A stretch of 64,000 bases of DNA from an uncultured Planctomycetia bacterium (GTDB taxonomy: Bacteria > Omnitrophota > Gorgyraeia > Gorgyraeales > Gorgyraeaceae), in the NCBI GenBank assembly GCA_964415355.1, contig CAYPYS010000007.1, positions 11,208 through 75,207 of the forward strand, read 5' to 3'. Position 1 is the first letter of the stretch; each line of letters opens with the position of its first letter. The position numbers were made by a program, and so were the translations under genes. Below the pieces are notes generated by a model, which worked only from the letters and a program-made list of their open reading frames with translations, was not told where the DNA came from and ran no database searches. Below, piece after piece: positions 6,569 to 61,600 of the stretch.

Positions 6569-6603
6569 CTTTACATTTCAACAACGTTAAAGTGTAAAGT
6601 TAG
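6566..6603 (-). repeat. Palindromic repeat copy 4 (T1, rev)
   Basis: taactttacatttcaacaacgttaaagtgtaaagttag; TAA is the dcd stop. Confidence 0.9.
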
Positions 6604-6617
6604 AGCAGGAGGATGTA

Positions 6618-7373: not shown

Positions 7374-7406
7374 CTTTACACTTTAACGTTGTTGAAATGT
7401 AAAGTT
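7371..7406 (+). repeat. Palindromic repeat copy 5 (T1, fwd)
   Basis: taactttacactttaacgttgttgaaatgtaaagtt; TAA is the gpmA stop. Confidence 0.9.
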
Positions 7407-7434
7407 GACTTATAGCAGCTATATATGATAATAT

Positions 7435-8346: not shown

Positions 8347-8382
8347 GTTTACACTTTAACATTGTTGAAATGTATACTTAAG
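8344..8382 (+). repeat. Palindromic repeat copy 6 (T1/T2 hybrid arms, fwd)
   Basis: taagtttacactttaacattgttgaaatgtatacttaag; TAA is the acyltransferase stop. Confidence 0.85.
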
Positions 8383-8400
8383 AGGGTAAATATTCACGTT

Positions 8401-9237: not shown

Positions 9238-9254
9238 ATTTAAAATGAAAAGAT

Positions 9255-38578: not shown

Positions 38579-38613
38579 CTTTACACTTTAACGTTGTTGA
38601 AATGTAAAGTTAG
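38576..38613 (+). repeat. Palindromic repeat copy 30 (T1, fwd)
   Basis: taactttacactttaacgttgttgaaatgtaaagttag; TAA is the DAHP synthase stop. Confidence 0.9.
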
Positions 38614-42686: not shown

Positions 42687-43853
42687 ATGGATATTCAAAA
42701 GCAGTTGGAGATCATAAGGCGTGGTGCAGTAGAGATAATCTCTGAGAAGGAGCTTGCCTCAAAGCTGGAAAGGCAAAAACCCCTTATTGTAAAGGCAGGA
42801 TTTGACCCGAGCGCGCCTGACATACACCTGGGCCACACCGTGCTTTTGCGCAAGCTTAGGCATCTTCAGGACCTCGGTCATAAGGTAGTTTTCCTTATAG
42901 GAGATTTTACAGGCATGATAGGAGATCCTACCGGACGCAGCGAGGTCAGGAAGAGATTGACGCAGAAAGAAGTCAAGGAGAACGCAAAGACCTATAAAAA
43001 GCAGGTTTTTAAAATATTGGACGAGAGAAAGACACAGGTGGTATTCAATAGCAAATGGCTCAGCTCAATGAAGCTGAGTGACTCTTTGGAATTGACCTCG
43101 CACAGCACTGTGTCGCAGCTGCTCGCGAGAGCGGATTTTAATGAAAGATATAAGTCAGGCAAGGACATAAGTCTTCTGGAATTCATGTACCCGCTTCTCC
43201 AGGCATATGATTCTGTGCATCTTAAAGCTGACGTCGAGTTGGGCGGCACTGACCAGAAATTCAATCTGCTTTTAGGCCGCGAGATCCAGAAGGATTACGG
43301 CCAGGAGCCTCAGGCTATTATCATGATGCCGCTTTTGGTCGGGCTTGACGGCACGCAGAAAATGAGCAAGTCTTTCGGGAACCATATAGGCATAGAAGAA
43401 GCTCCGGAGCAGGTATTTGGCAAGATCATGTCTCTCTCAGATGAACTTATGACGCAGTATTACGAGCTATTGACAGACGAGGATCTGGATGGAGTGCGAA
43501 AGCTGCATCCGATGAAGGCAAAGAAGAACCTAGCGCAGAAGATAGTAGGGCAGTATCACGGTGATAAGACAGCATCTCTGGCGCGCAGAGACTTCGAAAA
43601 CAAATTCCAAAAAAAAGACCCCTTTACAGAGCTGGAACCGCAGACAAAACCATACCATAAGACGCTGGCAGATTTTCTAGTAGCAGATAAGATATGTGTC
43701 AGTAAAAGCGAATACAGACGCTTAATGGAGCAGGGGGCAATAGAGGTAAACGGTAGCCGCATCAAAACACCGGATTTCGTATTAGAGCCCTCCAAAGAAT
43801 ATCGCATAAAAGTAGGCAAAAAACGCTTCCTAAAGGTCACCTTTCTCCGTTAA
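42687..43853 (+). CDS. tyrS: Tyrosyl-tRNA synthetase
   Basis: 'PDIHLGH' (HIGH), 'KMSKS', and a C-terminal S4-like domain. Start 42687; 42657 is repeat-derived. Confidence 0.95.
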   Translation: MDIQKQLEIIRRGAVEIISEKELASKLERQKPLIVKAGFDPSAPDIHLGHTVLLRKLRHLQDLGHKVVFLIGDFTGMIGDPTGRSEVRKRLTQKEVKENAKTYKKQVFKILDERKTQVVFNSKWLSSMKLSDSLELTSHSTVSQLLARADFNERYKSGKDISLLEFMYPLLQAYDSVHLKADVELGGTDQKFNLLLGREIQKDYGQEPQAIIMMPLLVGLDGTQKMSKSFGNHIGIEEAPEQVFGKIMSLSDELMTQYYELLTDEDLDGVRKLHPMKAKKNLAQKIVGQYHGDKTASLARRDFENKFQKKDPFTELEPQTKPYHKTLADFLVADKICVSKSEYRRLMEQGAIEVNGSRIKTPDFVLEPSKEYRIKVGKKRFLKVTFLR

Positions 43854-43888
43854 CTTTACACTTTAACGTTGTTAAAATGTAAAGTTAA
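43851..43888 (+). repeat. Palindromic repeat copy 34 (T1, fwd)
   Basis: taactttacactttaacgttgttaaaatgtaaagttaa; TAA is the tyrS stop. Confidence 0.9.
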
Positions 43889-43980: not shown

Positions 43981-44064
43981 ATGTATCGCAGGCGCATCAA
44001 CAGGATCACATCCATCGTAACTCTTCTGACGTTTCTTTCCACCAGCACCCTTTACGCAGCACCA
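43981..44064 (+). other. Shared 28-aa N-terminal leader, copy in giant ORF 1
   Basis: MYRRRINRITSIVTLLTFLSTSTLYAAP versus ORF3 MTWKIIRKITSIVILITFLSTNVIYAAP: 17/28 identical with no gaps. Basic n-region, hydrophobic core, and a YA|AP cleavage-like end. Confidence 0.8.
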
Positions 44065-47000
44065 TCCAGCCGTTCATTCTTCAAAAATAAAAAAGTAGAT
44101 CACAAGAAACTAAGTGACCAGAACGAAGACTTTATAGAGAAAAAAGGCTCTGTCCTTGATATTAAAAATGGCGCAAAGCCCCAGGCGCGCAGGAAAGAGG
44201 CAAGGGCCCTCCTTTCTTCCCATCTAAAGGATTTATCGCAGATACATATACCTTCTGAACTGGGAAGGATAATAGAGGTGTATGAAGGGGAAAAGGATAA
44301 ACGACAAGGAACAAGGCCTTTGATCGTTCATATCCAGGACCTCCACACAAATCCAGAGGCAGAACTTAACCTTGCCAAGATCCTCGAAATACTTATAAAA
44401 GACTATAGCATGAATCTGGTCTGCTCAGAAGGCGCAGACGGAGAGGTGGATACTTCTTCTGTCTCAAGCTTTCCGGATTACTCTGTGAGAGAAAAAGTAG
44501 CCAGGCTCTTCATAGATTCAGGAGAATTGACAGGAGAGGAGTATTTATCGATAACAAAATATCCTGATCTAGCCATATGGGGCATAGAGGATAGAGATAT
44601 ATACTTTAAAAACATAATAGAGTTCAATAAGATTATAAAATTCTCTCCCCAAAGCCACGTATTTATATCCCAGGCCAAAAAGGCCCTGGAGCAACTTAAG
44701 CCCAAGATATGCTCAAGGGAACTAAAAGACCTGGACCAGAAAGAAGCCTCCTATGATAACCAGGAGATAGAGGTAGCCCAGTATCTTAATTACCTCGCTG
44801 ATTATGTTGAGGCACTCGGAATCAATACAAAAGACTATAGAAATGTGAATCTATTGGCTGAATCCATAGACCAGGAAAAGACTATAAATCAACAAAAGAT
44901 AATGGATGAGTCGCAAAGTCTTTTGTTGAACCTTCAGGTCTCTCTTTCTAATAAAAGGATAAAAAAAGAGCAGGATGAACTTATGGCGCGCGCAGAGCTT
45001 TTCAGGGACCAGAAGATCTCACCCTTTTCATTCTATAGCTACTTAAAAGCCTTGGCTCTCAGGCACCTGAAAGAAGGTCTTTCAAAATACCCTGATCTTG
45101 ATCGCTACATCACCTATCTCACGAATGTAAACTCTTTAGACCAGGTGAAACTCTTCAATGAACTAAAAGATCTCGCATACGATATAAAACAGGCCCTCGC
45201 AAGGACGCCTGAACAAAAAAGATTTGTAAAGGCCCTCAGGAACATAAACTTTTTAGAATCTTTCTTTAACCTCAAGGTCTCAAACGAAGAATTAGACTAT
45301 TACCTGGCCAATAGAGACTCCCACAAGGTAGGATTCTTTCAGGATTTTCTGAAACCCACCCTGAAAAAATACAGACTATCGAGTTTCATAGATTATAATA
45401 CAGACCTTATAGACTCAAAGCTTCCTATCCTCGAAGACTTCTACAAGACTGTCAAAGACCGCGACGTAGCAATGGTCAAAAACTCCCTCTCTGAGATCGA
45501 AAACCGCAATTCAAAAGTCTCTGCCCTGATCGCAGGCGGTTTTCATACAAAGGGCATAACAACTTTACTAAGAGACAAAAACTATTCCTATATAGTAGTA
45601 TCCCCATACTCATCCACTGACATAGACGAGGAGAATTATCATTTTCTATTATCAGGTAAACGCAAGCCGCTGACAGAGCTATTGAATAAGCTTGATGCGT
45701 CAGAAATCGTAGACGGGCTTTCCTCAAGCTTAAGGGTAACGGTGGGTTTTGATCTTGATATGCACGATGGCTTAAGAGAAAAGGTTGCCCCTGTGCTCGC
45801 AGAAGAATTAGGCGTATCAGTGGAAGAGGTAACCCCGGAAAATATTCTTGGGAGAATAGTTCCGGTTCTTCTATTGCACAGAGAGGCCTCGAGCTGGTTT
45901 AGTAATTTTGACAAGATTATCGGCGTAGAGATAAAGCGGACTGCCAAGGGACTTGTAATGAAGATATCCCCTAAAGGTAGAGGGACAAAAGCAAGATATA
46001 TTATGGCCACAAGAGATAGCGGGTTTACTCTTGCGACAGCACGTGACTTCAATGCTGCAGGCGCGACAGTAATAGCTGTTGCTCCCGAGAAGAGCCCTCT
46101 GGCAGATACAGAGGATGATTCTTCACTTACCTATGCCGGAGGAGAGCAAGCTAGAAACGTAACTACTTATAATGACCTATCAGCGCAGGGCATCAGGGAT
46201 TCACTGGCGACACTTTCTCGCGACGGCGCTATTTTAGTCCTGGCTGACGGCACAAAGTGGACTGTGAGTGAATGGGATAGCCAGAGCAAGACCGCAGCGC
46301 TTACTGGTCTAGGAGATGCAAAAGGAGAAACGCAATACATATCAGTGCTGGATGACGGCCTGGTTGTCATAAGTGCTACTCCTCTTATTCGCGACTATAC
46401 AGTCGTGGCCATTGCATCGGATGCTTCTGTTTCTGTCAAGATAAAGGCATTGGCAGAGGATATTTTTACGAGTCCTGACAGGGCGCTTGCGACAGCCGCG
46501 CTTCAATATGGCCTGACCCGCGGATTCCAGCCGCTTATCAATTACATATCAGCGCTTCTTGAGAGAGAAGGCGTAAAGGCCCATCCTGAGACAGAGGTCG
46601 TAATGCTGGATGATGTCTTTGAAGGAGAAGATATTTTAGCAAGACTCCTCATAGAAGAAGGCGATATAGTTGTTTACAATAGCGGAAACCTGTCCGAGCA
46701 GGACAAAAGGATTTATACCAATCGTGGCGCAGAGTTAATAGAGATGGACCTCTCGACACCCGTTGGGATGCACAAGTTGTCCGGGCGTCTCGAGAACGGT
46801 AGTATAGACGCGGACCGCGTTAAATTTATTCAGGTTTTGTCCGAGAGAAAACTAGGGACAGAAACTATGTCGCAGTCTGCAAGAGTCGCGCTTTTAGCAC
46901 TGGCCAGAGAGCATGATTTTCTTTTAGTAGAAGACGCCAGGTACAGGGATCCTGTTTTGTCAGAAAACGAAAGTTTAAAGGCCATCGATTACGAAGGCCT

Positions 47001-48084
47001 TGATAGCAGGGTCGTGCAGCTTCGCAGTCTTTCGCAGCTTTTTGGGAAAGACGTAGAGATAGGTTCTGGTTATGCCGTGCTTCCGGCCGCGCTCGCGGTA
47101 AAGTTTGAGGCGACTAAAGGCTCTGTAACGCTTCACCCGAATTCAATGGCGCAGATACTTGTATATAAGGAATTATTGAGGAGATACGGAGATAGAGACA
47201 TTGAATTTTCTGAACTTACTGAGGCAGAGAAAAATCCGGAATTACCGGCCTGGCTCTCGGATAAATTATCTGACTATGGCAGAGGCATCAAGCTTTCAGA
47301 GATAAGAAGGATCCTGAAACTCATGGCCGACCCTGATTTGATTTCATTGGCCGGAGGCATACCTGCCGCCGAACTGTTTCCTTACGAACAGACCTATGAA
47401 CTTATTGCAGAATTCGGCGAAGGAGACTGGAGAACGGCTCTGACTGCTTCTCACAGTCAGGGCATTGAGAGGCTCAGGGCATTGGCAGCAAAGACTGTTG
47501 GCGCCGGCGCAGAGAATGTGCTTATAACAGATGGCTCGCAAGAGGGCCTTGACCTTTTAGGCCGCTTTGTCAGGTCTATTTCGTCAGAGAGGGATGACAG
47601 GGCTAATGAGGTCATAACCCAGAAGCCGACATACCTTGGATTCATGAGCGCTGCGGATCCATATGGATGCGAGGTCCAACCGTATGATCTGAATAATCTA
47701 GAAGGCATTGAAGAACTTAGAAAAGATCTGAGGACGAGAGCTGATGCCGGAGATGCCCTTCCTTCTCTTATGTATATAATGCCTACCTTTGGCAATCCAA
47801 ACGGAGACGTAATGAGTTTAGAGGAAAGGGTAAGGCTTTTGGAGGTAGCAGACGAGTTTGACATAGCCATTGCCGAAGACAATCCATATGGAGCGCTTAG
47901 ATACGAGGGGGAAGCTATCCCTACCTTGCTTGAGTTATCAAGAGAATCAGGCAATGCCACTGTTTTATACCTTGGCACAGTGTCCAAGACATTTACCCCG
48001 GGCATGAGGATAGGCTGGACAGTAGGGCCTGTGGAAATAATACAGCGTTTAACAGCATACAAGGAAGAGACGGTAAAAAGGTAG
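43981..48084 (+). CDS. Giant fusion ORF 1 (1367 aa): signal-like leader, unknown (possibly TraB/Tiki/ChaN-like) N-region, unknown middle, degenerate plus canonical class I aminotransferase modules; ends at a frame break
   Basis: Uninterrupted 4.1-kb ORF. ATG 43981 follows SD aaaggggg and a consensus promoter. 'ISLAGGIPAAELFP', 'MPTFGNPNG', 'AEDNPYG' and 'GTVSKTFTPGMRIGW' are aminotransferase (Aro8/LysN-type) motifs. See the domain features below. Confidence 0.8.
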   Translation: MYRRRINRITSIVTLLTFLSTSTLYAAPSSRSFFKNKKVDHKKLSDQNEDFIEKKGSVLDIKNGAKPQARRKEARALLSSHLKDLSQIHIPSELGRIIEVYEGEKDKRQGTRPLIVHIQDLHTNPEAELNLAKILEILIKDYSMNLVCSEGADGEVDTSSVSSFPDYSVREKVARLFIDSGELTGEEYLSITKYPDLAIWGIEDRDIYFKNIIEFNKIIKFSPQSHVFISQAKKALEQLKPKICSRELKDLDQKEASYDNQEIEVAQYLNYLADYVEALGINTKDYRNVNLLAESIDQEKTINQQKIMDESQSLLLNLQVSLSNKRIKKEQDELMARAELFRDQKISPFSFYSYLKALALRHLKEGLSKYPDLDRYITYLTNVNSLDQVKLFNELKDLAYDIKQALARTPEQKRFVKALRNINFLESFFNLKVSNEELDYYLANRDSHKVGFFQDFLKPTLKKYRLSSFIDYNTDLIDSKLPILEDFYKTVKDRDVAMVKNSLSEIENRNSKVSALIAGGFHTKGITTLLRDKNYSYIVVSPYSSTDIDEENYHFLLSGKRKPLTELLNKLDASEIVDGLSSSLRVTVGFDLDMHDGLREKVAPVLAEELGVSVEEVTPENILGRIVPVLLLHREASSWFSNFDKIIGVEIKRTAKGLVMKISPKGRGTKARYIMATRDSGFTLATARDFNAAGATVIAVAPEKSPLADTEDDSSLTYAGGEQARNVTTYNDLSAQGIRDSLATLSRDGAILVLADGTKWTVSEWDSQSKTAALTGLGDAKGETQYISVLDDGLVVISATPLIRDYTVVAIASDASVSVKIKALAEDIFTSPDRALATAALQYGLTRGFQPLINYISALLEREGVKAHPETEVVMLDDVFEGEDILARLLIEEGDIVVYNSGNLSEQDKRIYTNRGAELIEMDLSTPVGMHKLSGRLENGSIDADRVKFIQVLSERKLGTETMSQSARVALLALAREHDFLLVEDARYRDPVLSENESLKAIDYEGLDSRVVQLRSLSQLFGKDVEIGSGYAVLPAALAVKFEATKGSVTLHPNSMAQILVYKELLRRYGDRDIEFSELTEAEKNPELPAWLSDKLSDYGRGIKLSEIRRILKLMADPDLISLAGGIPAAELFPYEQTYELIAEFGEGDWRTALTASHSQGIERLRALAAKTVGAGAENVLITDGSQEGLDLLGRFVRSISSERDDRANEVITQKPTYLGFMSAADPYGCEVQPYDLNNLEGIEELRKDLRTRADAGDALPSLMYIMPTFGNPNGDVMSLEERVRLLEVADEFDIAIAEDNPYGALRYEGEAIPTLLELSRESGNATVLYLGTVSKTFTPGMRIGWTVGPVEIIQRLTAYKEETVKR
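44300..45610 (+). other. Unknown N-region of ORF 1 with weak TraB/GumN/Tiki/ChaN-like end motifs
   Basis: 'LIVHIQDLHTNPEAE...LVCSEGADG' near the start and 'ALIAGGFHTKGITTLLRDKNYSYIVVSP' near the end resemble the two conserved blocks of that superfamily. The assignment is by eye only. Confidence 0.3.
46470..47190 (+). other. Degenerate aminotransferase large-domain copy (module 1)
   Basis: 'LQYGLTRGFQPLINYISALLEREGV', 'LVEDARY' and 'KGSVTLHPNSMAQILVYKELL' align by eye with class I aminotransferase blocks. The NPxG and SxSK motifs are not preserved. Confidence 0.5.
47290..48081 (+). other. Canonical class I (Aro8/LysN-type) aminotransferase module 2, truncated ~30 aa after the PLP lysine
   Basis: 'ISLAGGIPAAELFP', 'ITDGSQEGLDLL', 'KPTYLGF', 'MPTFGNPNG', 'AEDNPYG', and 'GTVSKTFTPGMRIGW' (Lys codon 47986-47988). 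Confidence 0.75.
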
Positions 48085-48089
48085 GCTTT

Positions 48090-51000
48090 GTGCCTGGCTG
48101 GCCGTTTTTAGGAGAGTCAAATCAGATCAGGCTGTCTTTCCCGACAAACTCCCCTGATATTATAGACGGCGCAGTAAAGGCAGTTAGTATTGCCATAAAG
48201 GACAGCATGGGCAAAGGCACCCTGGCTATGGAAGGCCAGGTCCCTGCTGCTGATCTCGAGATCCTTACTAACTTTGGGACAGCCGGATGGCGAGGCACTG
48301 ATTTTACAGACGGCAATGTCAGGCGCATGGCACAGGCTGTTGCCGAAGTAGGGATAGCAGAAATCAATAAGCCTGTTTCTGAGATTCGCATGGCTGTCGG
48401 ATATGATGCAAGGCCTGGTGCCAGGGAAGATGCTATCCTCCTAACAGAGGTTCTGGTAGCGAACGGCATACACGTTGATTTCATAGATCAGGTATTGCCT
48501 TCACCCGTAATGATAGAGGTAACGCACGGAAGCGTTCCTGATTCAGAAAGATATGATCTAACGGTTTATTTTACCGCAAGTCATAATCCCGTGTATCAAT
48601 CGCTTGACCCGCTTAAGCAGTATAAAGGTATAAAGATATTAATAGAGGGTGTTCCTGCCGGCGATGAGTTTACCTCAAAGATATCAGCTCGAGCAAATGA
48701 CCTGGCCAAGAATGCCACATATAAATATATTCCCTTTGATCAGATTCCGGATATGCTTATTACGCATGACGTGGATCTTATTGCAAAAGATAGAGCTCGA
48801 CTTGAAAAAGCCTTTGGGCTTTCAGATTATGGAGTAAAAATAGCCAGATTATTTACTATATTTCCTAATTTGACGATTCGCATAAGTCCGATGAACGGTG
48901 CGACCGTGGAACAGATCGCTATATTCGATAAAATAGGCCTACCTGTAGTTTTTTATGATACCGCGCCTTTGCATGAAGTTATAGCCAGCGGAGAATACGA
49001 GCTTCAGACTGCAGACGGGATAATGAAAGGACCTGATCCGACAAAACCCTATAATCTTAATGCAGAGATGTTAAAAGATACAGAAGGGCAGGATGTCATA
49101 AAGTTTCTTATTGACGGAGACGGGGACCGTCTTGTTGTCGAGGATATAAACGGCAGGCCGATCACGCCTAATGAAATCGGTCTTATCATCGCCCATTATC
49201 TCCTGGAGCACAAGGGCGAGGAAGGTTACGTCGTCCGCACTTTGCCTACTACGAGAATGCTGGATCGTCTCGCAAGAAAATTTGGAATGCCTCTCGCGCA
49301 GACAGGAGTCGGCTCAAAGAACTTCGGGCCTTATACTGTTCAAGGGACCGAGCAGCGTCTTATCGTTGCCGTTGAAGAGAGCGGACATGTTTTCTTTAGA
49401 TTAGGCGATGAGATATTTGTCGACCATGCAGTAGCCGAGGCCTTGATCCTGCTCGATATCATGGCAACGACAGGCAAGACATTGACCCAGTATCTTGAGG
49501 AGGTCGAAAGAGAGCTGGGGACTATTCATTATAAACGGGATGCCGTGGCCAAGGAATTAGCGGTCCCTGGCCTGAAGCGCGGGCTATTGTGGCTGCGCAA
49601 TAATGATCCTGAGCTTTTGGCGCGCGCAATCGCAGATGAACTGGGTATGGATTTGAAAGGTTTTGATCCATTGGATAAGACCGGTGTCCTTGTAACCTTT
49701 GAAGATGATCAATGGATTTTACCTCGCGCATCAGGCACGACAAATACTATAAGGATTTACGCTGAGACGAGTTCTCAGGAAGATCTGGAAAAATGGATAA
49801 GCGGAGCAGAAAGGGTTTTGGTAAAACTTGTCAATGATATGGCTGCTCAAGGCATACTGGACAGGTCTCCGGATATCTGGTCGCATGTTATAGAAAGAGG
49901 AAAATCTCTCGCAGGCGATATCGTGAAGTGGCTCGGCTGGGTAGATGCGCCTGTGAGATTTTTGAAACGGATGTCAAAGATTAGAAGCTTGAAGTCAGAG
50001 CTTGCAGAGGAAGGCATAACCAATGTCGTTGTCCTTGGCACCGGAGGATCAGGCCTGGGTATAGGGACTTACGCCGAGGTCTTTGAAAAAGATAATTTAA
50101 TAGTCATTGATTTAGAAGATCCTCAGGGCATACAGAATGCAATGGCATGGGTCGATGAAAGGGGTTGGGATAAGACGATCTTTACTGTGCAGAGCAAATC
50201 CTGGGGCACTACTGAAACAAGAAACGCAGAGGCAGTTTTCAGGCAGGTCCTGGCTGATCGGATAGGGGCTGAAAATGTAGCCCGGCATTTTATAGCAGTG
50301 ACTGACGCAGGCAGGATAAAGGGAGAAGAGAGGGCTAATTTTAGGGAAATATTTGCGACTAATTATCCCGGAGATGCCAGGAAAGGTCGCGATATAGGTG
50401 GCAGATATTCTTCAGATTCCTTCTTTAGTCTTGTTCCGGCTGAATTAGCAGGCATACCCCATGAAGAGCTTTTAGTGGATGCCCGCGATGAATATAACCA
50501 GTTCAGGCGAGAGCTTGGAGAATATATAGGTGTCCGCATAGGCGCAGAGCTTAGCAGGTTCCACGGCCTTGGCAGAAATAAAATTACCTTTATATTAGAT
50601 AAAGGCCTTGAAGCATTTGGACCGTGGGTGCAGCAGCTTATAAATGAATCCGTAGGCAAGAACGAAGATACCGTAGTCTGTGTTACCGGAGAAGAATTTT
50701 CAGGAGATAGTTCTGTGTATGGGGATGACAGGGTCTTTGTGAAGATCGCTATAGGTAAAGGTCCTGCTATGCAAGTCACAGAACAAGGCATTGTTCTCAT
50801 AGTCGAAAGTAAAAATGACATAAATAGATTGCAATATAGGTTCAAGGTAGCTACTGCTATCCTGGCAAATCTAATGGGTGTGCACCCGTTTAATCAGCCG
50901 TTTGTCGAGAGCAGTAAATGGATTACAAAGGGTCTCCTGGATTCGGAGTTGACTCCTGAGCAGCTCACAGCAGAGCTTGTCGTAGCCGCATCTGAAAATT

Positions 51001-51899
51001 TAAAGAAATACGAAGGAGCAGAGGTCGCTATGCATTACACAGGAAGGACAGAAGACGCTATTGACATTGACCTGGAAACTGCTTCTGTGGAAGATGTATT
51101 GGCAGCATTTCTGGCAACAATAGAGTCAGGGGATTATATCTATCTTTCTCCTTATACATTTGATTCTCCTGCGCTGCAAAAGGCCTTTTCTGAGATAAGG
51201 AGTATTATAAGAGATAATCATCCTGCTCATCCAGCCACGCTTTTTGGCATTGGCTCAAGGAGCCAGCATTCCGACAATCAGCTTAATAACGCCACTGACC
51301 AGGCAACGGTATTGGCGTTTACCTTTGATTCGGCCGAAGGTGTTGATAGGGCAGTGCCCGGTAAAAATTATACACTGGCTCAGGAAAACATGGCGCATGC
51401 ATTGGGAACGGTAGGCGCGCTGGAGGATAAGGGAAGAAGGGTCATGAGGATCCACCTTTCCGATGAGTACAGGCAGGACATAACAAAATTAACAGCACTC
51501 TTTGAGAAAGCCGTTGCAAGGATGCGCGGAATGGAATTAGTCAGGTCATCGAGTAAGCAGCAGGCCGCGTCAATGGAACAGATCCTGGTCGTTCCCGCAA
51601 ACAAGGTAATAGCCGATAAAGAGGGTTTTGAAAAATGGATGTCATCCGGCCGCCAGGAAAATAACGCTGTGGTGATAGTAGCTTATGATGTCGACGAATA
51701 CAATCGGGTCAAGGAATTCGGGGACATTGCCTATATAAGGGTAGTCGGAAAGGATATTAGCGAGGAATACGACCTTAAGCTGCTCCAGATGTTTGCATTG
51801 TTCGGAAAAGATAATATGTTTGGCGGATTTATACTTGGGACACCGGCTGACCTGGATGATTTCAGATCAGTTTCCGAAGAGATATCCTCTGGCGTCTAA
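48090..51899 (+). CDS. Giant fusion ORF 2 (1269 aa): aminotransferase C-terminal remnant, alpha-D-phosphohexomutase, glucose-6-phosphate isomerase, shared C-terminal domain
   Basis: GTG start 5 nt after the ORF1 stop, in the -1 frame. 'FVPGWPFLGESNQIRLSF' (aminotransferase end); 'FGTAGWRG', 'TASHNP', 'DGDGDR', 'EESGH', 'RASGTTNTIRIYAE' (PGM/PMM); 'GTGGSGLG', 'SKSWGTTET', 'GGRYSS' (PGI). Confidence 0.8.
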   Translation: MPGWPFLGESNQIRLSFPTNSPDIIDGAVKAVSIAIKDSMGKGTLAMEGQVPAADLEILTNFGTAGWRGTDFTDGNVRRMAQAVAEVGIAEINKPVSEIRMAVGYDARPGAREDAILLTEVLVANGIHVDFIDQVLPSPVMIEVTHGSVPDSERYDLTVYFTASHNPVYQSLDPLKQYKGIKILIEGVPAGDEFTSKISARANDLAKNATYKYIPFDQIPDMLITHDVDLIAKDRARLEKAFGLSDYGVKIARLFTIFPNLTIRISPMNGATVEQIAIFDKIGLPVVFYDTAPLHEVIASGEYELQTADGIMKGPDPTKPYNLNAEMLKDTEGQDVIKFLIDGDGDRLVVEDINGRPITPNEIGLIIAHYLLEHKGEEGYVVRTLPTTRMLDRLARKFGMPLAQTGVGSKNFGPYTVQGTEQRLIVAVEESGHVFFRLGDEIFVDHAVAEALILLDIMATTGKTLTQYLEEVERELGTIHYKRDAVAKELAVPGLKRGLLWLRNNDPELLARAIADELGMDLKGFDPLDKTGVLVTFEDDQWILPRASGTTNTIRIYAETSSQEDLEKWISGAERVLVKLVNDMAAQGILDRSPDIWSHVIERGKSLAGDIVKWLGWVDAPVRFLKRMSKIRSLKSELAEEGITNVVVLGTGGSGLGIGTYAEVFEKDNLIVIDLEDPQGIQNAMAWVDERGWDKTIFTVQSKSWGTTETRNAEAVFRQVLADRIGAENVARHFIAVTDAGRIKGEERANFREIFATNYPGDARKGRDIGGRYSSDSFFSLVPAELAGIPHEELLVDARDEYNQFRRELGEYIGVRIGAELSRFHGLGRNKITFILDKGLEAFGPWVQQLINESVGKNEDTVVCVTGEEFSGDSSVYGDDRVFVKIAIGKGPAMQVTEQGIVLIVESKNDINRLQYRFKVATAILANLMGVHPFNQPFVESSKWITKGLLDSELTPEQLTAELVVAASENLKKYEGAEVAMHYTGRTEDAIDIDLETASVEDVLAAFLATIESGDYIYLSPYTFDSPALQKAFSEIRSIIRDNHPAHPATLFGIGSRSQHSDNQLNNATDQATVLAFTFDSAEGVDRAVPGKNYTLAQENMAHALGTVGALEDKGRRVMRIHLSDEYRQDITKLTALFEKAVARMRGMELVRSSSKQQAASMEQILVVPANKVIADKEGFEKWMSSGRQENNAVVIVAYDVDEYNRVKEFGDIAYIRVVGKDISEEYDLKLLQMFALFGKDNMFGGFILGTPADLDDFRSVSEEISSGV
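48264..49830 (+). other. alpha-D-phosphohexomutase (PGM/PMM/GlmM-family) module
   Basis: Catalytic-Ser loop 'TASHNP' (48573-48590), metal loop 'DGDGDR' (49113-49130), sugar loop 'EESGH', phosphate loop 'RASGTTNTIRIY'. Confidence 0.8.
49900..51540 (+). other. Glucose-6-phosphate isomerase (SIS-fold PGI) module
   Basis: 'VVVLGTGGSGLG', 'SKSWGTTET' (50193-50219), 'IGGRYSSDS', 'GIGSRSQHSDNQL'. Confidence 0.7.
51576..51896 (+). other. Shared C-terminal domain (~107 aa), copy in giant ORF 2
   Basis: EQILVVPANKVIADKEGFEKW...AVVIVAYDVDEYNRVKEFGDIAYIRVVGKDISEE...NMFGGFILG...DLDDFRSVSEEISSGV. About half the positions are identical to the ORF3 C-terminus. Confidence 0.8.
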
Positions 51900-51935
51900 C
51901 TTTACATTTCAACGTTGTTGAAATGTAAAGTTAAG
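51897..51935 (+). repeat. Palindromic repeat copy 35 (T1, fwd, perfectly complementary arms)
   Basis: taactttacatttcaacgttgttgaaatgtaaagttaag; TAA is the stop of giant ORF 2. Confidence 0.9.
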
Positions 51936-51952
51936 CAGTGCGCTGACCACCT

Positions 51953-51989
51953 TAACTTCACGCTTTAACGTTGTTGAAGTGTGAAGTTA
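51953..51989 (+). repeat. Palindromic repeat copy 36 (diverged T1, fwd)
   Basis: taacttcacgctttaacgttgttgaagtgtgaagtta; 17 nt after copy 35. Confidence 0.8.
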
Positions 51990-52079: not shown

Positions 52080-52520
52080 ATGAAGATATCTACAAGAATC
52101 AGATATGGCACGCGTTTGATGCTGGAATTAGGGCTTTCTTATAAGGAAGGCCCTATTTTTTTAAAAGATATTGCCAGGAAGCAGGAGATCTCTGAAAAAT
52201 ATTTAAGCCAGATCATCATTCCTCTAAAGGCTGCAGGCCTGATCAATACTTATAATGGCGCTCACAGCGGATATGTCCTAGCTAAATCTCCGCAAGAAAT
52301 AACAGTGAAAGAGATAGCAGAGATCGTAGAAGGGAATTTCGATCTTATAGAATGTGTGACTAACCCTTCCGGATGTGCACGCGCAGCTATGTGTGCGACA
52401 AGAGATCTATGGGATGATCTGGGCAGGACGATCGCGGAAAAACTCGATTCATTCACTATTAAGGATTTAATAGATAGATCCAAAGAAAAACAGGAAAATT
52501 CAACAGCATATAATATCTGA
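52080..52520 (+). CDS. Rrf2-family (IscR/NsrR-like) transcriptional regulator with a three-Cys cluster-binding motif
   Basis: 'MKISTRIRYGTRLMLELG' N-terminus, wHTH 'ISEKYLSQIIIPLKAAGLI', Cys motif 'CVTNPSGCARAAMC'. The stop lies 25 nt before giant ORF 3 with no repeat between. Confidence 0.85.
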   Translation: MKISTRIRYGTRLMLELGLSYKEGPIFLKDIARKQEISEKYLSQIIIPLKAAGLINTYNGAHSGYVLAKSPQEITVKEIAEIVEGNFDLIECVTNPSGCARAAMCATRDLWDDLGRTIAEKLDSFTIKDLIDRSKEKQENSTAYNI

Positions 52521-52545: not shown

Positions 52546-52629
52546 ATGACCTGGAAAATTATAAGAAAAATTACTTCTATTGTAATACTCATAACTTTTC
52601 TATCTACCAATGTCATATACGCGGCTCCG
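52546..52629 (+). other. Shared 28-aa N-terminal leader, copy in giant ORF 3
   Basis: MTWKIIRKITSIVILITFLSTNVIYAAP. The nucleotide sequences of the two leaders differ at many synonymous sites, so the peptide is conserved rather than recently copied. Confidence 0.8.
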
Positions 52630-55600
52630 GGGCCCCGCAAGACACTAAGGGTGCCTCTGGGGTTTGCGAGAGAAAAGCTTTTAGAGCAGGAGCAAACAGG
52701 GCTTCCCACAAAGGAAATGCTTCTTATGATGGCCCAGGCAGTAGCCATGAGGATGGATGACGAATCCATACTCATGGATCTAGGGACTACTTTTTTCAAC
52801 ACAGCCTTTCGCAGAAATCTCGGCTCTCCTATCGAGATCCGCAGGAATAAAAATACAGGTACAGTCCATATCCGTTACAATGACAGATATATATCCATAA
52901 CAAGAAGCGGAAACATATCCGTGTCAAGCAGAATAAACTTTGATAAAGCCGAGCTCGTGATTGCCAGCATCAAGCCGCTTGTCGCATCCTCTTCTGATCC
53001 GACTGATAAAAAAGACAGGACAATAGGGTCTCTTCTCGGACTAATGGAGACATTTGCAGATCTCGGGCTCAAGCCAGGAGAGAAGATAACCATAAATGAC
53101 ATAATCCCTGAAAGAAAAAAGCAGGACGGTACATTGTATTCTCGTACGACAGTCTCAAGAGAATTTAAGGATGCAGTGGCGCTTGACCTTTTGAGGCTCA
53201 CAGGCAACAAGATAAAAAATAGCAATGAATATGAAGTCCTGAAGTCTTTTACGAGAGAACAGCTTAGTAGATTGCCGGGGCATATAAGGAAAAAGTTAAA
53301 CAGGGGCAGGATCAGATCTGATGAGATAGAAGAGCTCAGGCGCATATTCATAGCTGAGACATTAATGGGGCAAGGGACATTGCTGAAGGTATTCCTGGCA
53401 GGCCTTGCAGGTTTTCAGGAGGCGCTTGCAGACATACCTTATGATCTTTCAGGCGCAAATACTGAGACGGTCCAGAGTTTATTCACGGCTGTTGAAAACA
53501 TAGTTTTCCTGGCAAGGGATTTTGATAAAAAAGATCCTGCCTATGCCGAGGCTTATATCTATGAAAGCTTAGGGTTTGTTGATATTGATGGGAAAAGAAG
53601 ACTTGCTCTTGTCATCACGCCTTTTGAGGACAGGAGAAAGACCGGGTCCCTGGATGTCCTGGTATTTGATTCGCTTCTATCCGCGAATTATACGAGCCAC
53701 GCAATAAAAGCGACAGAAATAGAAATGGTGTCTACTATTGTCGGACGCCTGGATGAAAAGGATATTATCTCGCTTTCTCTTAAGTTCAGGGCAGAGTATC
53801 TGGATAACCCTGATGGCCCTGGCACGAGCGACACAAGGCGATCTGCCAAGGATTTTTTCCTGTATTTTGCCTCAAAGCGTAACGCAACCCAGGAAATATT
53901 GGATTTGGACGAAGAACTGATAGATGGTCTGGAGGGAAGGGACCTGGAAATAAAAGAACGCATGGCGCGCCTGAAAGAGGGCGTGTCGGATAAAGATCTT
54001 CTGGACGAATGGTTTATAGAAATTATGCAGGGAAAAGATACTCTTGTTCAGTACCTGTTATACACAGGGGACGCGGCTACATTCTGGTATGATTTACTGC
54101 TGGAGCTTGATTATACGCGCGCAATAAATGAGATGTTTTTATCAAGGCCTGACGCAATGACAACTTATGCCAGAAATGCATACGAACAGGCAGTCGTGGC
54201 CTCATGGATTTATATTCACCGCGCTGATTTTGGATCGCCTTTAGGAGAGAGGGCAGCCGAGGACAGAATAGAGGATTTTCAGCTGGCCCTGACATGGGAC
54301 ACGCTTGGCATACCAGGCCAGAAGGCGCTTGGCATGACAAAGGCAGAGTTTCCTGTGTGCTTGAATTGTGTTGGAAGGCCCTGTCAGCATGGGCCGCTGG
54401 GAAGCGTTGCTGCCCAGACGCGCACAAGGTCGGGTTTCGCCTCAGGCATAAGGTCTTTGATAGAAGACAATAATGTCTCTGCCAGCGTTCAGTTAGAGGG
54501 CGTATTTATATCCGAAGGAGTTTCATACTTAACCCATTTATATAATTATGCTGAACTATTGCTTATAGACCAGGCAGACGTCACCAGGTGGATGAATATG
54601 ACAGCGAGGGAACTGGACAGCGAAATAAGGTTGTTGACAGATGATGCAGACGCAATAGATCAAGAGGCAAAAAACATCGCAGAGCCGCATTGCCCGTTAG
54701 AGGTTCCTATCGCGGATATGTTCAGGCTTATGCGGCAGGATAGATTTGAAGAGGCGCTTGAGATCTTGAATAACAGCAGTTTTCTTGCAGGTATCTTCGG
54801 GCTCGTATGTCCCCAGGAACACCTGTGTCAGGCCGCGTGCGTCCAGGGCAGGCTGAGCGACAGGCCTTTGCCCATAGATATAGGAAAATTAGAATATCTC
54901 ATAGAGCTTACTTATATGAGGATAAACGGAGAATTGCCTATGCCTGAGGTCGCACCATTTACAGGAAAGTATGTCGCGATTATAGGTTCTGGCCCGGCAG
55001 GACTTCAGGCAGCATATGACCTGGCAAGAGAGGGTCACAAAGTGGTTTTATTCGAGCACCTGCATAAGGTCGGAGGTGTTTTAGTATATGGTATACCTAC
55101 ATTCAGGCTTCCTCCCGAGCTCCTCGAAGAAAAGGTCAGGATACTTAAGGAGATGGGCGTAAACTTTGTCACGAATGCTATTATAGGAGAAGACGGTGCG
55201 TATACCATAGAGGAGATGAGAAGATCATTTGACGCAGTAATAGTGGGCGTTGGCGCAGGCCAGTCAAACAAGATGGAGATAAGAGGCAAGGTGGTCCTTC
55301 TCGACGAAAAAACAGGAAGGGCAAGATTAGAGGTGCCTGAATACGCAAAGAGAGTGCCGATACCGGGCAGGGCCTTGAATGGCATTTATTCAGCGTATCA
55401 TTTTCTTTCATGGACATATCTGATGAATGCAATAAAGCCGGGTTATGATACGCCCATACCGCTCTCAAAAAATATACTCCAAGCATTTACGGAATCCAGG
55501 GCTACAGGAGAGGAAAAAGAAGTTACTGTGGTCGTAGAGGGCATAGGAAACGTGGCGCTGGACAGCGGCAGGACAGCTCTCAGATGGATAAATGTCCTGA

Positions 55601-58600
55601 ACAGGATATATGGCACAAATGTCAGGCCAAAGATCATATTCCTCTACAGGCGTCCGAGGGAAGAACTGGACCTCAAGGCGCGCGCAGAGGAATTAAAACA
55701 TCTCAGGGAAGAAGGCGTTGACACAATAGACATAGACGTATATGAGCTTCACCAGACCGTTGAATATCTCGGAAATACAAAGGGACATATAGAAGGAATA
55801 AGGGCCATAAGGTATGACAGAAAAGGCGCTAAGGAAGGCGTGCTGGTCGACATCCCCGTTGACATGGTTGTAGAAGCCCTGGGAGCAAAGCCGGCGACCG
55901 AGATATTAGGACCTTCCATACCTTTAAATAGATACGGGTATATCGAGATAGATAATCACAGGACAATGCAGGTAAGAGACATGGACGGCTCTGATGGCCT
56001 GGCGCCTGTATATGCTGTCGGAGACTGCGCAGAGGTGGACGCTATAGATGAAAGGATTATGGCGACCGCTGTCCTTGCTGCAACGCATGGAAAAAGGGCA
56101 TCCGAGGCACTCATAGAAAGACTGGATAATGAGACTGGCATGGTTCAGAGATATATAGATATCGATAAGGTATTTTTTAAAGCTACTCCATACAGGATGC
56201 ATGAGATATTGGAAAGGCGCAGGATAGGCAAAAGAGAGCTTGTATCCAGGCCGCTACGCGGAGATACGGGCAATGTTTTTAGCGAGCAGAGGATCGTGGA
56301 ATTTACTATTTATGCGCCTCATGTAGCCCGCAGGATCAGACCGGGCCAGTTTGTAACGCTGATGGCAGATGAATACAGCGAGAAAATACCTATAACATAT
56401 GTCGGTCTTGGAAAGATAAAAGGCAGTATACGCCTTGCCATCCTTGACGCAGGCGAATCAACAGTAAAAATAAATAATATGAAAAAGGGTGATTTGTTTT
56501 ACGCAGTCACCGGACCTGCAGGAGAACCTTCGATCTTTACAGGGCTGGCAGGCGAGGTAGACCTGGTGGGGTTGGGCAGTGGCATAGCCGCGATTGTCGG
56601 CATCGCCGAGCACAGGGCAGACCTGGACAGGAAATATAAAGAGTTGATGGCCAGGCTGGCAGGCAATTCCCGCGCAGATGTAGTCCTGTCGCTGATAGAA
56701 GAGATTTGGTCAGAATTGAGTCTTGCAAAGGATGATCTTTTGCACTATATAGTCGATGCGATAAGAGACAGGGATTATAATGAAGCAAAGAATCTGTTGA
56801 CAGCACTTGCCTACTCTATTGAACAGGATTTTCCGGCGAGCGAGCTTATAGCAGATGCAGAAGCACTGGTTGATACGATAACCATGCTCGAGGATTCTGT
56901 AGAAGACGAGGATGAATTGAATCTGCTTGTAAAACAGGAGGTCTATCAGGCGATAGACGATATATGGGAAGAGTTTGAGATATTAAAGAGAGAGAAACTA
57001 TTAAGGGAAATCAGTGATTTTGTATCTTCCGGAAATTACAAAAATGCATCTAATGCCTTGAATGCCGTTATCGGCGCAGGCTTTGAGACAAAGGTATTTC
57101 TGGCTGTCGGGAATAAGGATCTTTTGATGTATAAGACCGAGCTGGAAGAGGCTGTTGGCAGGGAGAACATATTCATAGCGCTTGAGGATGCCGAGGGCTT
57201 TGATCCGCATGCCGAAGGATATGCCAGCCTGATAGCGCATGAGAACAGGTTTTTTACAGGTTATGGCACTATTGCTTTTGGGGATTATTTAGGCAGGACG
57301 CATGATCCTATTAGCGGATTGTTGGTAGCAGGACCTGCGTTCGCAATGAATCTTTTTGTGCCATTGGTCAGAGAAGCAAACAGGCCTGATATCCTGAGTA
57401 CGAGAGACGTGTGGATGAGTACTAACCCGCCCATGTACTGTGCCTACGGCGGTTGTTTGATGTGTCTGGTGGCTACAGAACAGGCGATTCCGTGGCGCGG
57501 GTGTTTAGGTCCTGAGGCAGAGGCAGATATGCTTATCGGCGATTCTATTGTCAAGGGGCTTGAAATGAGCAAGCCTCAAGACATAATGCCGGGCGTTATA
57601 TTCAGCACGTCACCTTCTGTTGACAGGGAGCAAGCGATATCTGATATAGTGCAGGCGCTTGATGAGATTCTTTATATGCCTACTGTAGATGGTAAATTAT
57701 TTGTTGCCATATCTGATGCAAAGGGTTCGTTTATCGCTGAGTTAAGAAATGGTATTTTAGAGGAGAGATTATCTGACGAGGATATTGATGCAGTGCTCGA
57801 GAATATTGATTGGGAAAGACTAGGTGTTTTTAAGCCAGGCCATAAGATAAGGTTTGCAGGTAGGATATCCGATGTCTCAGGATTAGAGCTTGATAGGGTC
57901 ATGGAATTGCTCGGACTGACAATGCAGGGTGGAAGCGGTGCAGAAGATTCTGATTCCGGGATGACGCTCGATGATTTATTCAGTAGGAGCTTGGATCTCT
58001 CGATACTTGGCATAGAGGTCATCGGAGAATTCCGCGAGGTCTCTATATCGCCTTCCGGTTTTTCACGGCTCCGGGCGTTCCTTGAGGAGATCGGCGATAG
58101 ACAGAAGTTGGAAGAAATTTTGGGACTCGAAGGAAGTGAGTTTATTTTTGTTATGAATGGCGCGAATGAGCTTGTCGCGATTGTGATCCGCAACGAGACC
58201 AGGCAGAAAGAGCTTCTATGGATAGAGGGAGAGGCATCGTCCGAACTTTTCAGCTATCTGACTCTGAGAGCCTCTCTGCGTGGCAGTTCTATATCCGCGG
58301 ACCTGACAGTGGAGGAGATAAAACCCGGCGCAATACTCGGACCCGGCGCGACCACTACTCCCGCAAGCTCTGCCCTGGCAAAGACAGGGACGTGGACCAC
58401 GAAATACGCAGAGCATGATCTTGATGCGTGCGTGCAGTGTGGCCTGTGCGCACTGGTATGTCCCGAAGGCGCGATAGCGTTTGATATGGAGCCGGCGCTG
58501 AATACAGGCAGGCTGGTCCTTCCGACAAATCCTGATTATTGCAAGGGCTGCGATGCCTGCGTGGTACATTGTCCTTTAAAAGGATACGCGCTTAAGATGA

Positions 58601-61600
58601 TAGAAAAGACAGACCTTCGCCAGGTAGCAGTATCTCTGGATACGAATCCTGAGGGAAGAGGCGTTGTTATCGAAGGCGCTCCGGCATTACAGTTTGAAGG
58701 GCTGTTTAAGGAAGGCATTGATAGATTCAAAAAGGCATTAGGGCTCGATGTAGTTGAGATAATCAGCGAGAGTGAATCTTTTGTGCAGGTGAGGTATGAG
58801 AGAGGTGACATAGCATATCTTTTTACATTCGATAAGAAAAATACAAGATTGATCTTGAAACCATTGAGGACATTTGCCGTCGTTGGCCTTGAGAGTAAAA
58901 ATATTGATCTGGCAGATGCATTGCGCAGCAGGGGATTTGCGGTTACCGGCTTGATTTCTACTAAAGACAGAGGTTTTAGAGATAAATTAATGGAGGCCGA
59001 GAGACAGGGTATCAGTGTTTATGCGATAGAAGCAGGTTTGCTAAACCCTGGTATTAGCGGCAGTCTTCAGGCATTGCTTAATGACATCGAACGCCTGCGT
59101 CTTGCTAGATTTGTCGCGGTTGACACAGAGACGATCAGGGAGATAATCGGCCTGGACGAATACACGAAACTCGTCGAGGAGATAAACGAATATACACATA
59201 ATTCTATAATAAACTCTGTGGATTTGTTGCCGACAGGCAACACAGACTTTGATGAGGTCATGGCGAGTTTTGCTCCCGAATGGCAGGACCAGGTTCGCGA
59301 CCTCGCGCCCGGACACGGCCTATGCCCCGGCTGCGGTCAGCCGACAGACACGCACCTTGTATTAAAGGTAGCGGATGAACATGGAATGGCGCCGGTGGGT
59401 GTCATTACGACAGGCTGCCAGGAAGTCTCGACCACTAACTGGCCTTTTAATTCATGGCGCATACCAATGGTCCACGGAAACTATACAGCATCAGCCGCAA
59501 TCGTCAGCGGTATCTTCCGTGTCTATCAGTGGTTCAAAAAGATGGGCGTAAGTGTTTACGGGGATAAAGAAATCTTGCCTATAGTTATTATGGGAGACGG
59601 TGGTTTTGCAATAGGGCTAAATGTAATATCAGGCGGCCTGGAAAAGGGATTACCGATTTTATATCTGGTCGAGAATAATTCAGGCACTCAGAATACGGGC
59701 GCGCAGGCATCCACGCTTTCGATGCCGGGCATAACTGCGCAAGGCGCCTCACAGGTAAAGACCACGCAAGGCGTGTATATACCTGATATAGCAAAGGCGC
59801 ACGGACCTAACGTCTATTACGCAAGGGTTTCCAATGCATATCCCGAAGATTTTGAGAGAAAATTAAACCGCGCAATGGAATGGATAAAACAGGGAAGAGG
59901 ACCTGCGGTCATAGAGTCTTTTAACACCGCATGCCCTACCGGCTGGAAGTCTGACGCGACACAGAGCCAGGAAGAAACCTCTCTTTCGGTCCAGACAGGC
60001 GTTGGCATGACTGTGCTTTTTGAGCAGGTCGGGAATCGCATAAGGATAACGCAACCACCTCTTCTAAGAGACGGAAAGATATATATAAATACAGAATATA
60101 TGCGAAGCCTGGAATATGAGTTAGGTCATTTAAGGAATGCCGGCGGCAAGAGGCTGTTATCTGACAGACAGGTGGCTTCCATGATTTCGCATATCAAGAA
60201 GAGAAGGGAATTTATTTTGGCAAGAGAGCTTGAAAGAAGACAGCCTAAAAAACCAGGCCTGCCGTTTGTCCAGCTCGACTTAGATGCGTTAAAGAACCTG
60301 CTTGTCCTTCATTCGTTCAACCTGCCTCTGGAGTCAGACCTATTGATAGACAGGTTGGATGTCCTGGGCCTTTCCGGAGACGAGATAGAGGACATTGCGC
60401 AGCATCGGTCAGAGGGTAATGAATTCAGAAACAGGCAGGACGTGCTTCGGTTTATAACCGATGTGCGTTACAGAGAGGTTACGGAAAGAATACTTGATAT
60501 ATATGACACAGTCGAGATCAGGGATTTTATTATGGAATGGACAGAGACAAAGGAAGAGGGAAATATCGATTTCGAGGAGACCGTTGTATTTGAGAAGATA
60601 GAAGATATTTTGAAAGTCCCGGGCATAGGGCCAGTGACGTATGATGCCGTAAGTCCGTATCTTACATTAGAACCGAGAAGACCTCATATATTCGAATACT
60701 TATCGAGACAGGGAAGATTCAGGAGGCTTCTTGGCTGGGATGACGAGGCGTTTCTGGGAGACATGCAGCGAGATGTGGACGCGCATATACTTAGGCTGAT
60801 GGCGCAGCATGAAAACGACAGGGCTTTCTTTGAGAACTTTGATAATTTACTGGCCAGAGGAGAAAAAATCCCGGTAGAGCAGTTCAGGTACAAGTCAGCA
60901 AGGGAGGCGCATGACAAGGCCCTTGTTCCTGCTAGAGTCATACCTGCGGATCCGGAAAGAAACATCAGGATTTTAGAACGCAGGGCAAGGCTAGGGGATA
61001 GGGTTTTTGAAGAACGCTGGCATGGAAGAGGCGGCCAGGGTGCTATTACTGCGGCAACGCTTCTGGCAACATATGCGGGCGAGGTAGAAGGTATAGGCAT
61101 TCAGGCGTTTCCGCACTTTGGGGTCGAACGCGCAGGTGCGCCTGTAAAGGCATATGTCAGAATGGGTAATAATATAAAACAGCATGACCCTGTTACGGAA
61201 CCTGATGTAGTAGTGGTTATAGATGAGTCTTTGCTGGAACTTCCCGAAGTGTTGGAAGGTATAAAGCCGGGCGGTTTTCTATTGGTGAATAGCAAAAAGC
61301 CGGCTGAAAAAATACTGGAAGAATTAAGGGCTAAAGGCAATGCGCTTAAGGATATTACTCTTTTTAGCGTGGACGCTACCGGTATAAGCATAAAACACAT
61401 GGGAAGAAATCTCCCTAATATTCCTATGCTGGCTGCGAGGATTATGGTTTCGAGGCTTACTGATGCAGACTTGGGTCCGGCAGAAGGCGCCACGGATTAC
61501 ATAAGGCAGCTTTTAGTAGAGATGTTTGGAGAAAAGATAGCCGGATTAAATTACGACGCGATGCAGGAATCAGTACGTTCTATAGATGCTGTATCAGGCG

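Follow-up and report, generated by a model that had tools for sequence, protein, structure and literature searches.

A giant multi-enzyme gene from an uncultivated member of the Omnitrophota, probably split by an out-of-frame deletion, with two rare alleles that restore the frame

Two giant open reading frames (ORFs) follow one another in a 64,000-nt stretch of DNA from an uncultivated Omnitrophota bacterium (positions 11,208 to 75,207 of contig CAYPYS010000007.1, GenBank assembly GCA_964415355.1; henceforth the window), and they raise the question of whether they are two genes or one gene that has been broken. ORF1 (43981..48084, + strand) encodes 1,367 amino acids (aa) from ATG 43981, and ORF2 (48090..51899, + strand) encodes 1,269 aa from GTG 48090. 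Judged by their sequences they are the upstream and downstream halves of one giant multi-enzyme gene, with modules in the order leader, N-domain, a first aminotransferase-like module (AT'), a second aminotransferase module (AT), a phosphoglucomutase (PGM)-like module, a PGI-like module and a C-terminal domain (C-domain). We consider it probable that a deletion of ~259 nt split the gene, that the split allele forming the majority is real, and that two alleles with +1 suppressor insertions arose later. The ORF listing puts the start of ORF1 at TTG 43966. The ATG at 43981, with AAGGGGGA upstream, has the better Shine-Dalgarno (SD) sequence and is the start chosen in the public gene calls (P0123, 1,367 aa).

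ORF1 is read in frame 1, and its C-terminal end is ...TAYKEETVKR (GTVSKTFTPGMRIGWTVGPVEIIQRLTAYKEETVKR), followed by TAG at 48082-48084. The codons at the junction are ACG GTA AAA AGG TAG. This segment (48075..48084, + strand) comprises a run of five adenines (A5, 48075-48079), the AGG and the premature TAG, a stop codon made by the shift of frame and the first that the shifted reading meets. Frame 3, which is the −1 frame, opens at 47934 and reads ...GRDGKKVGFVPGWPFLGESNQIRLSFPTNSPDIIDGAVKAV...; its first start codon is GTG 48090, preceded by aaaggtagg. Reading base 48078 twice would fuse the ORFs into a protein of 2,644 aa if translation began at TTG 43966, and of 2,639 aa if it began at ATG 43981. 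On re-reading the sequence we found the stop codon and the A5 run where the first-pass annotation had put them. Its estimates of a −1 frame open from at least 48000 and of a product of ~2640 aa on a −1 slip agree with these values.

The character of the break is seen in the AT module. Its N-terminal part (47254..48072, + strand) resembles LysN and 2-aminoadipate aminotransferases and retains the lysine that binds pyridoxal phosphate (PLP), in GTVSKTF at 47977-47994, which aligns with GSFSKVL of LysN and GTFSKIL of 1x0m. The only Pfam match in ORF1 is Aminotran_1_2 at residues 1153-1364, covering profile positions 30-243 of 361, which falls short of complete large and small aminotransferase domains. 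Homology in the ORF1 frame stops at Thr 48070-48072. The C-terminal block of the module, KVGFVPGWPFLGESNQIRLSFPTNSPDIIDGAVKAVSIAIKD (48078..48200, + strand), lies in the ORF2 frame, and ORF2 aa 1-37 belong to it. It corresponds to LysN residues 343-391, and is close to, and contiguous with, the matching block in L018, a locus of a related genome. The fused sequence aligns with chain residues 17-264 of LysN (PDB 2egy) and then with 343-391, so that ~78 residues (265-342) are missing. Against the orthologous modules of L018 and of a second relative, L011, exactly 86 residues are missing, the window protein jumping from ...YKE to KVGFVPGW....

L011 and L018 carry the AT'-AT tandem with 58-63% identity to residues 812-1364 of the fused protein (numbered from ATG 43981), and in both the aminotransferase domain is complete and contained in a single ORF (L011 ORF 3-8165, 2,721+ aa; L018 ORF 9986-21931, 3,982 aa). 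Because these relatives encode both parts in one frame, and because residues 1-37 of ORF2 align closely with the end of the L018 aminotransferase module, ORF1 and ORF2 must formerly have been one gene. Both the LysN and the relatives' alignments therefore bear out the first reading of this locus as one aminotransferase fold divided over two frames, with some 90 residues missing inside it, and the single ORFs of L011 and L018 dispose of the idea that the orthologues might always be two genes with complete domains. A protein query spanning the junction returned the same locus and no other fused homologue.

The two ends of the fused protein lead to the same conclusion. ORF1 begins with a leader, MYRRRINRITSIVTLLTFLSTSTLYAAP (43981..44064, + strand), that is common to ORF3 and the relatives and that we infer to be signal-peptide-like. 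ORF3 (52546..63657, + strand) is the second giant gene of the window, a single polypeptide of 3,703 aa, and its leader is 58% identical to that of ORF1 over 31 aa (BLASTP E 3e-6). The last ~120 aa of ORF2 (51546..51896, + strand) constitute the C-domain, and over its final 150 aa ORF2 shares 45% identity with the end of ORF3 (E 1e-26). The family leader is thus on ORF1 and the family C-domain on ORF2, where ORF3 and the relatives have both on one polypeptide; this again argues for a single former gene, and it accords with the earlier suggestion that the merged protein would resemble ORF3.

The same locus was traced in public assemblies through the protein cluster that contains ORF2 and thence to the encoding contigs, 13 of which are near-identical and were each aligned to the window; variants that cluster elsewhere may be missed by this route. 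Exact-pattern scans for the junction in one metagenome contig collection gave no match, the collection evidently being without these contigs. Three alleles are present. Allele A is the split form found in the window, and its junction is identical in 11 further assemblies (L002-L005, L007, L022-L027), taken from JGI (3300009128, 3300009373, 3300009374 and 3300009405) and ENA (SAMN10231901, -903 and -904; SAMN11854489, -493 and -494). It spans at least seven samples and two pipelines, and occurs on at least three single-nucleotide polymorphism (SNP) backgrounds (47370 C/A, 47850 A/C, 48880 G/T). Alleles B and C are singletons.

Allele B (L001, JGI 3300013118, contig Ga0171656_1029763) agrees with the window at every base over 3,981 nt, apart from one T added after base 48077 (+T at 48078), which converts AAAAA to AAATAA (GTAAATAAGG). 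The frame break is gone, and the fused ORF P0001 encodes ...EETVNKVGF... (EETVNKVGFVPGW). The contig corresponds to window 47974-51953, beginning 104 nt upstream of the variant base and ending 54 nt past the gene, as would be expected of a bubble in the assembly graph if that sample contains both alleles. Allele C (L006, ENA SAMN10231893, scaffold_6243) differs from the window over 18,485 nt by five SNPs and one added A at 48024 (48023..48024, + strand; GTAGGG to GTAAGGG), and keeps the A5 run. Its codons from 48024 to 48078 are read in the ORF2 frame, and the called protein P0125 of 2,639 aa contains ...GWTV-RACGNNTAFNSIQGRDGKK-VGFVPGW..., with 18 out-of-frame codons. The peptides predicted to span the junction are EETVNKVGFVPGW for allele B, SIQGRDGKKVGF for allele C and EETVKKVGFVPGW for slippage on the split allele.

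In ~130 kb of aligned sequence the +T at 48078 and the +A at 48024 are the only true indels, and 54 nt separate them. L002 and L003 (in ORF3) and L026 and L027 (in ORF1) seem to have additional frame breaks, but these are scaffold N-gaps. A +1 insertion restores the frame only in the 148-nt zone 47934-48081, and a single-base indel placed at random would hit that zone with the right sign with a probability of ~0.004 for the 18.5-kb L006 and ~0.014 for the 4-kb L001.

How did these alleles arise? The window was scored at fixed register against two comparators, L011 and L018. Similarity in the ORF1 frame is positive through Y-K-E-x-T to 48072, and similarity in the ORF2 frame is positive from Arg 48066, which defines a deletion scar at 48066..48072 (+ strand). 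In the ORF2 frame, RDGK-KVGF is matched by RNGK-NVGF and RVGI-KLGF in the relatives, RDGK having a summed BLOSUM score of 22 (chance p ~5e-4 for a random tetrapeptide). The same bases in the ORF1 frame encode ETVK, or ETVN in the +T allele, unlike the relatives; ETVN scores −9. The right-hand homology reaches upstream of the +T site of allele B. Because the homology in the ORF2 frame begins at 48066 and that in the ORF1 frame ends at 48072, the frames already differ over the scar without an additional indel. The loss of residues and the break of frame are thus very probably the result of a single out-of-frame deletion of ~259 nt (84 codons + 7 nt = 3x86+1), and the 7-nt overlap at 48066-48072 is possibly microhomology. 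The first-pass annotation had included a real deletion that split an ancestral gene among its explanations, and the scar sharpens this to one event.

We would then envisage the following course. One deletion of ~259 nt in the second aminotransferase module would have taken out 86 codons and left the frame one base out of step, after which translation of ORF1 would run into a TAG that lies 10 nt beyond the scar; the A5 run would be a remnant of the scar. The resulting split allele, very probably real, is in the majority in the sampled population, and two rare alleles would have regained a continuous frame of 2,639 codons through different +1 insertions. In allele C this would have been achieved at the cost of 18 out-of-frame codons within an aminotransferase module that was already crippled.

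An alternative order of events starts from an in-frame deletion of 86 codons, with allele B (AAATAA) ancestral; loss of the T would have split the gene and the +A of allele C would compensate. This requires one disrupting and one restoring event instead of two restoring events, and MAFFT sets ETVN opposite EEVN and EKIN, the relatives having Asn at that position. However, the ETVN match hangs on a gap-rich alignment and requires two separate deletions, and we regard it as outweighed by the fixed-register test, in which it is RDGK and not ETVN that scores well beside KVGF (22 against −9). In addition the A5 run is found on at least three SNP backgrounds, whereas allele B was seen once, on a contig of 4 kb. 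The ancestral status of allele B is therefore unlikely. That the break might instead be a sequencing or assembly error in the A5 run, with one continuous ORF in the organism, was put forward by the first-pass annotation and has a precedent in the same phylum, where correction of a local misassembly turned two adjacent giant Omnitrophota ORFs into one (West-Roberts et al., bioRxiv 10.1101/2023.11.21.568195). There are also two public assemblies with a fused version of this locus. Yet the A5 run recurs base for base in the window and the 11 other JGI and ENA assemblies, from at least seven samples and on several SNP backgrounds. Moreover, alleles A and B differ by a T inside AAATAA and not by the length of a homopolymer, and allele C keeps the A5 run and restores the frame elsewhere, which is sensible only if the A5 run is real. 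A consensus error is thus very unlikely.

The earlier suggestion of a programmed −1 frameshift at A-AAA-AGG fares no better, and we think it most improbable. On this view the split allele would yield the 2,639-aa protein at a regulated ratio. A tRNA-Lys paired with AAA in the P site can slip back one base and pair with AAA again, there is a stop codon within two codons, and the product would bear both family termini. Against this, the site lacks an X XXY YYZ heptamer, and A-site AGG re-paired on AAG is mismatched at the middle base. AGG is the most used arginine codon (420 of 1,106), so that pausing at a hungry codon is not expected. The segment 48080-48180 folds with a z-score of −1.08, 31 of 200 shuffled sequences folding at least as well, and no Rfam match was found at E<=1. 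The site is a lineage-specific scar without counterpart in L011 and L018, where the module is in one frame, and the population has mended the frame twice by mutation, which is not expected if frameshifting already supplied the product. Low-level spontaneous slippage at the A5 run of the split allele may occur. Transcriptional slippage was dropped from consideration, a run of five adenines being too short for it. A further explanation sees the split allele as an incipient pseudogene: the split would be a step towards loss of function in a gene that is decaying or can be dispensed with, and the fused alleles would be neutral accidents. The split allele is in 12 of 14 assemblies, the AT module is crippled in every allele, and the family shuffles and truncates its modules freely, all as such a view would have it. 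Nevertheless, neutral decay predicts indels of random phase scattered over 7.9 kb, and the two that were found are 54 nt apart and both restore the frame, with a joint chance of ~5e-5. Both halves are without further stop codons in all haplotypes, to which we attach little weight given that divergence is too low. We consider simple decay of the gene rather unlikely.

Returning to the deletion followed by suppression, the restoration of frame by two independent alleles argues that the full-length product still matters. We infer that alleles B and C are natural intragenic frameshift suppressors. Since allele C gives up a further 18 codons of the AT module to regain the frame, it would be continuity and not aminotransferase function that is selected. 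This suggests selection for the covalent linkage of the leader and N-domain to the downstream modules and the C-domain, but none for aminotransferase activity.

Several points weigh against this account. The split allele is far commoner than the others, so that the full-length protein is not indispensable, and rare neutral variation may be all that the restoring alleles represent. Either fused allele is known from a single assembly, and the evidence is at the level of assemblies and not reads. ORF1, ORF2 and the fused product are predicted from the sequence. The gene holds three SNPs (two synonymous and one R264L), a divergence too low for dN/dS. The argument for an out-of-frame scar is drawn from two comparator sequences and four residues. 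Lastly, the boundary of ORF1 and ORF2 is without the stop-codon palindrome described below, and as ~10 other genes of the window also have none, its absence is weak evidence that the boundary is not a native gene end.

Some translation of ORF2 probably persists in the split allele, by termination and reinitiation at GTG 48090. This GTG follows the stop by 5 nt, behind a weak SD-like AAGG; SD sequences of the GGAG type are common among the genes here. A scan for promoters and terminators found no promoter-like or terminator-like site at the junction. Given this, and given that the boundary has no stop-codon palindrome, ORF1 and ORF2 are probably co-transcribed. A more speculative possibility, to which we assign little credence, is that a multi-enzyme protein, exported or anchored, has two states of expression, split and fused, between which selection can choose. 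The population would toggle the covalent linkage of the leader and N-domain to the half that contains the PGM, PGI and C-domains, or, in a variant of the idea, the split allele would furnish full-length protein in a small, regulated dose through slippage at A-AAA-A; this too we hold to be a long shot. If either version were true, it would provide a first functional handle on the fusion of central-metabolism enzymes into giants in Omnitrophota. A phase-variable contingency locus was considered and rejected, since the tract is only A5 and the insertions are at two different non-repeat positions (48078 T and 48024 A).

Two independent restorations of frame in a near-clonal wild population would be rare direct evidence of selection on the continuity of a giant protein, with the catalytic integrity of at least one enzyme module apparently not under selection. 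Because it is continuity that would be selected and not the catalysis of the AT module, roles that depend on linkage, targeting or scaffolding are favored for such fused 'metabolic' giants. For annotation, ORF1 and ORF2 are best treated as one disrupted gene, and in metabolic reconstruction the AT module should not be scored as a working enzyme.

The module upstream of the second aminotransferase, AT' (46483..47190, + strand), is degenerate and truncated by nature, with a weak Pfam match (E 0.011). It is related to the second module (BLASTP E 5e-4), LRSLSQLF lying opposite LGTVSKTF, and has Gln in place of the PLP lysine (SLSQ compared with VSKT). Since AT' in L011 and L018 likewise lacks a lysine at this position (SLSP and NLSR), it is by its sequence a long-standing pseudo-enzyme module. 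In ORF2, Pfam identifies phosphoglucomutase domains I, III and IV, and PGI. The phosphoglucomutase-like module occupies aa ~59-580 (+ strand), with TASHNP, DGDGDR and EESGH present, and the PGI-like module aa ~600-1100 (+ strand). The N-domain comprises ~650 aa in ORF1, and is 57-66% identical across 14 Omnitrophota loci. Between 44329 and 45669 it contains the motifs HIQDLHTNPEAE...SEGA...GGFHTKGIT..L....YSY(I/V)VVSP, which may resemble a fold of the TraB/GumN/Tiki type; profile searches gave no support for this. Neither the N-domain nor the C-domain has a match in Pfam, NCBIfam or PDB sequences.

A profile search of 1.84 billion representative proteins with the C-domain gave 36 matches. In 35 of the 36 representatives the domain is at the C-terminus or within ~60 residues of it; it is internal in P0155. 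Word-indexed protein searches with the C-domain returned one and three short fragments only. An AlphaFold model of the domain has an alpha/beta pattern at low confidence (pLDDT 57). The proteins that carry it (P0130-P0163) range from 106 to 3,787 aa. Of these 15 were read, and most have unrelated enzyme-like modules as judged by eye. The ORF3 copy of the domain is at 63259-63654. The remainder of ORF3 gives Pfam matches to Pyr_redox_2, Fer4, TPP_enzyme_C, POR, POR_N and PFOR_II, and corresponds to a GltD-like oxidoreductase (flavoprotein), ferredoxin domains and all parts of pyruvate:ferredoxin oxidoreductase (PFOR). The two giant genes have a regulator of the Rrf2 family (52080-52520) between them, and the same holds for all conspecific contigs that extend that far.

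The nearest genomes are metagenome-assembled genomes (MAGs) of Omnitrophota and one single-amplified genome, some of them deposited as 'uncultivated Planctomycetia'. The homologues in these relatives have the leader and an N-domain of ~650 aa, plus the 120-aa C-domain where the contig extends far enough. Their middle modules vary, and by eye include glutamate dehydrogenase, mannose-6-phosphate isomerase, PPDK/PEP-synthase, enolase, aldolase and UDP-glucose pyrophosphorylase. Between the enzyme modules of some of them a motif (K)LASN(A/E/S)G(L/I) recurs up to six times per protein (L021 ORF 1-8292, P0140, P0144, P0139, P0142, L010 and L014, but not the window proteins), and it looks like a linker or processing site. 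In L019, from another Omnitrophota MAG, the N-domain is found in two overlapping frames (4657-6165 and 6102-9716) near a short tandem GGCTCAAGGCTCAAAAGG. This break may be an error or a real frameshift.

At its native end (51896..51934) the gene carries a palindromic element over the stop codon, CTAACTTTACA-N17-TGTAAAGTTAG, of ~39 nt with the TAA inside the first arm. Further examples are at 43850-43888 and 38575-38613. Matches to the arm number 59 in the window against ~1 expected by chance, and the palindrome is exactly at the stop codon in at least 23 of the 41 gene ends. Several of the listed TTG starts are false starts within palindromes. The element might be a terminator-like, RNA-stabilizing or REP-like hairpin.

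How does the locus compare with known systems? The best matches of the AT module are in the LysN / 2-aminoadipate / kynurenine aminotransferase subgroup (2egy, 1x0m and 3aov; E 1e-41 to 1e-37). As in that subgroup the module is of fold-type I with PLP, the lysine motif and the C-terminal (I/L)RLSF arginine motif both being present. Unlike those enzymes it lies inside a giant protein, is short by 78-86 residues and in the split allele is distributed over two ORFs. Programmed −1 sites of the A AAA AAG type are found in dnaX and in transposases of the IS3 family. The junction resembles these in having an A-rich run just before the 0-frame stop and a downstream ORF in the −1 frame, but differs in lacking a canonical heptamer, a stimulator and conservation.

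The event itself is familiar in kind, a frameshifting deletion that splits a gene and is offset by intragenic suppressors of the classical +/− type. Compensating + and − frameshifts were reportedly established in the T4 rIIB experiments of Crick, Barnett, Brenner and Watts-Tobin (1961). Here too a lesion that shifts the frame, in this case a 3n+1 deletion, is offset by a nearby +1 insertion, and in allele C the stretch of 18 codons between the lesions is out of frame and tolerated in a dispensable segment. The differences are that the alleles come from assemblies of a wild uncultivated population and not from laboratory selection, and that there are two different suppressors. The type of mutation is ordinary; the population record is unusually clean, and the case is worth recording as one from a wild population of an uncultivated phylum and in a member of the multi-enzyme giant proteins.

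The locus shares with the case of West-Roberts et al. two neighboring large ORFs that are one gene. The break differs in that numerous independent assemblies reproduce it and that it coincides with a true deletion scar, and for these reasons we take it to be biological. With Aminotran_1_2, PGM I/III/IV and PGI, the fused product is a multi-enzyme protein of the Omnitrophota. Long proteins of this kind have been cataloged in a 2026 preprint, limited to those of at least 10,000 aa, among which PGM domains are some of the commonest (bioRxiv 10.64898/2026.06.07.730766). The proteins here are from the same phylum and likewise have many unrelated enzyme Pfam domains on one polypeptide and an N-terminal signal- or transmembrane-like segment. 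We found no description of a family defined by the leader and the 120-aa C-domain. At 2,639 and 3,703 aa its members in the window are well below the size limit of the catalog, and the family is a small one (36 representatives), set by the leader and the C-terminal domain that its members share.

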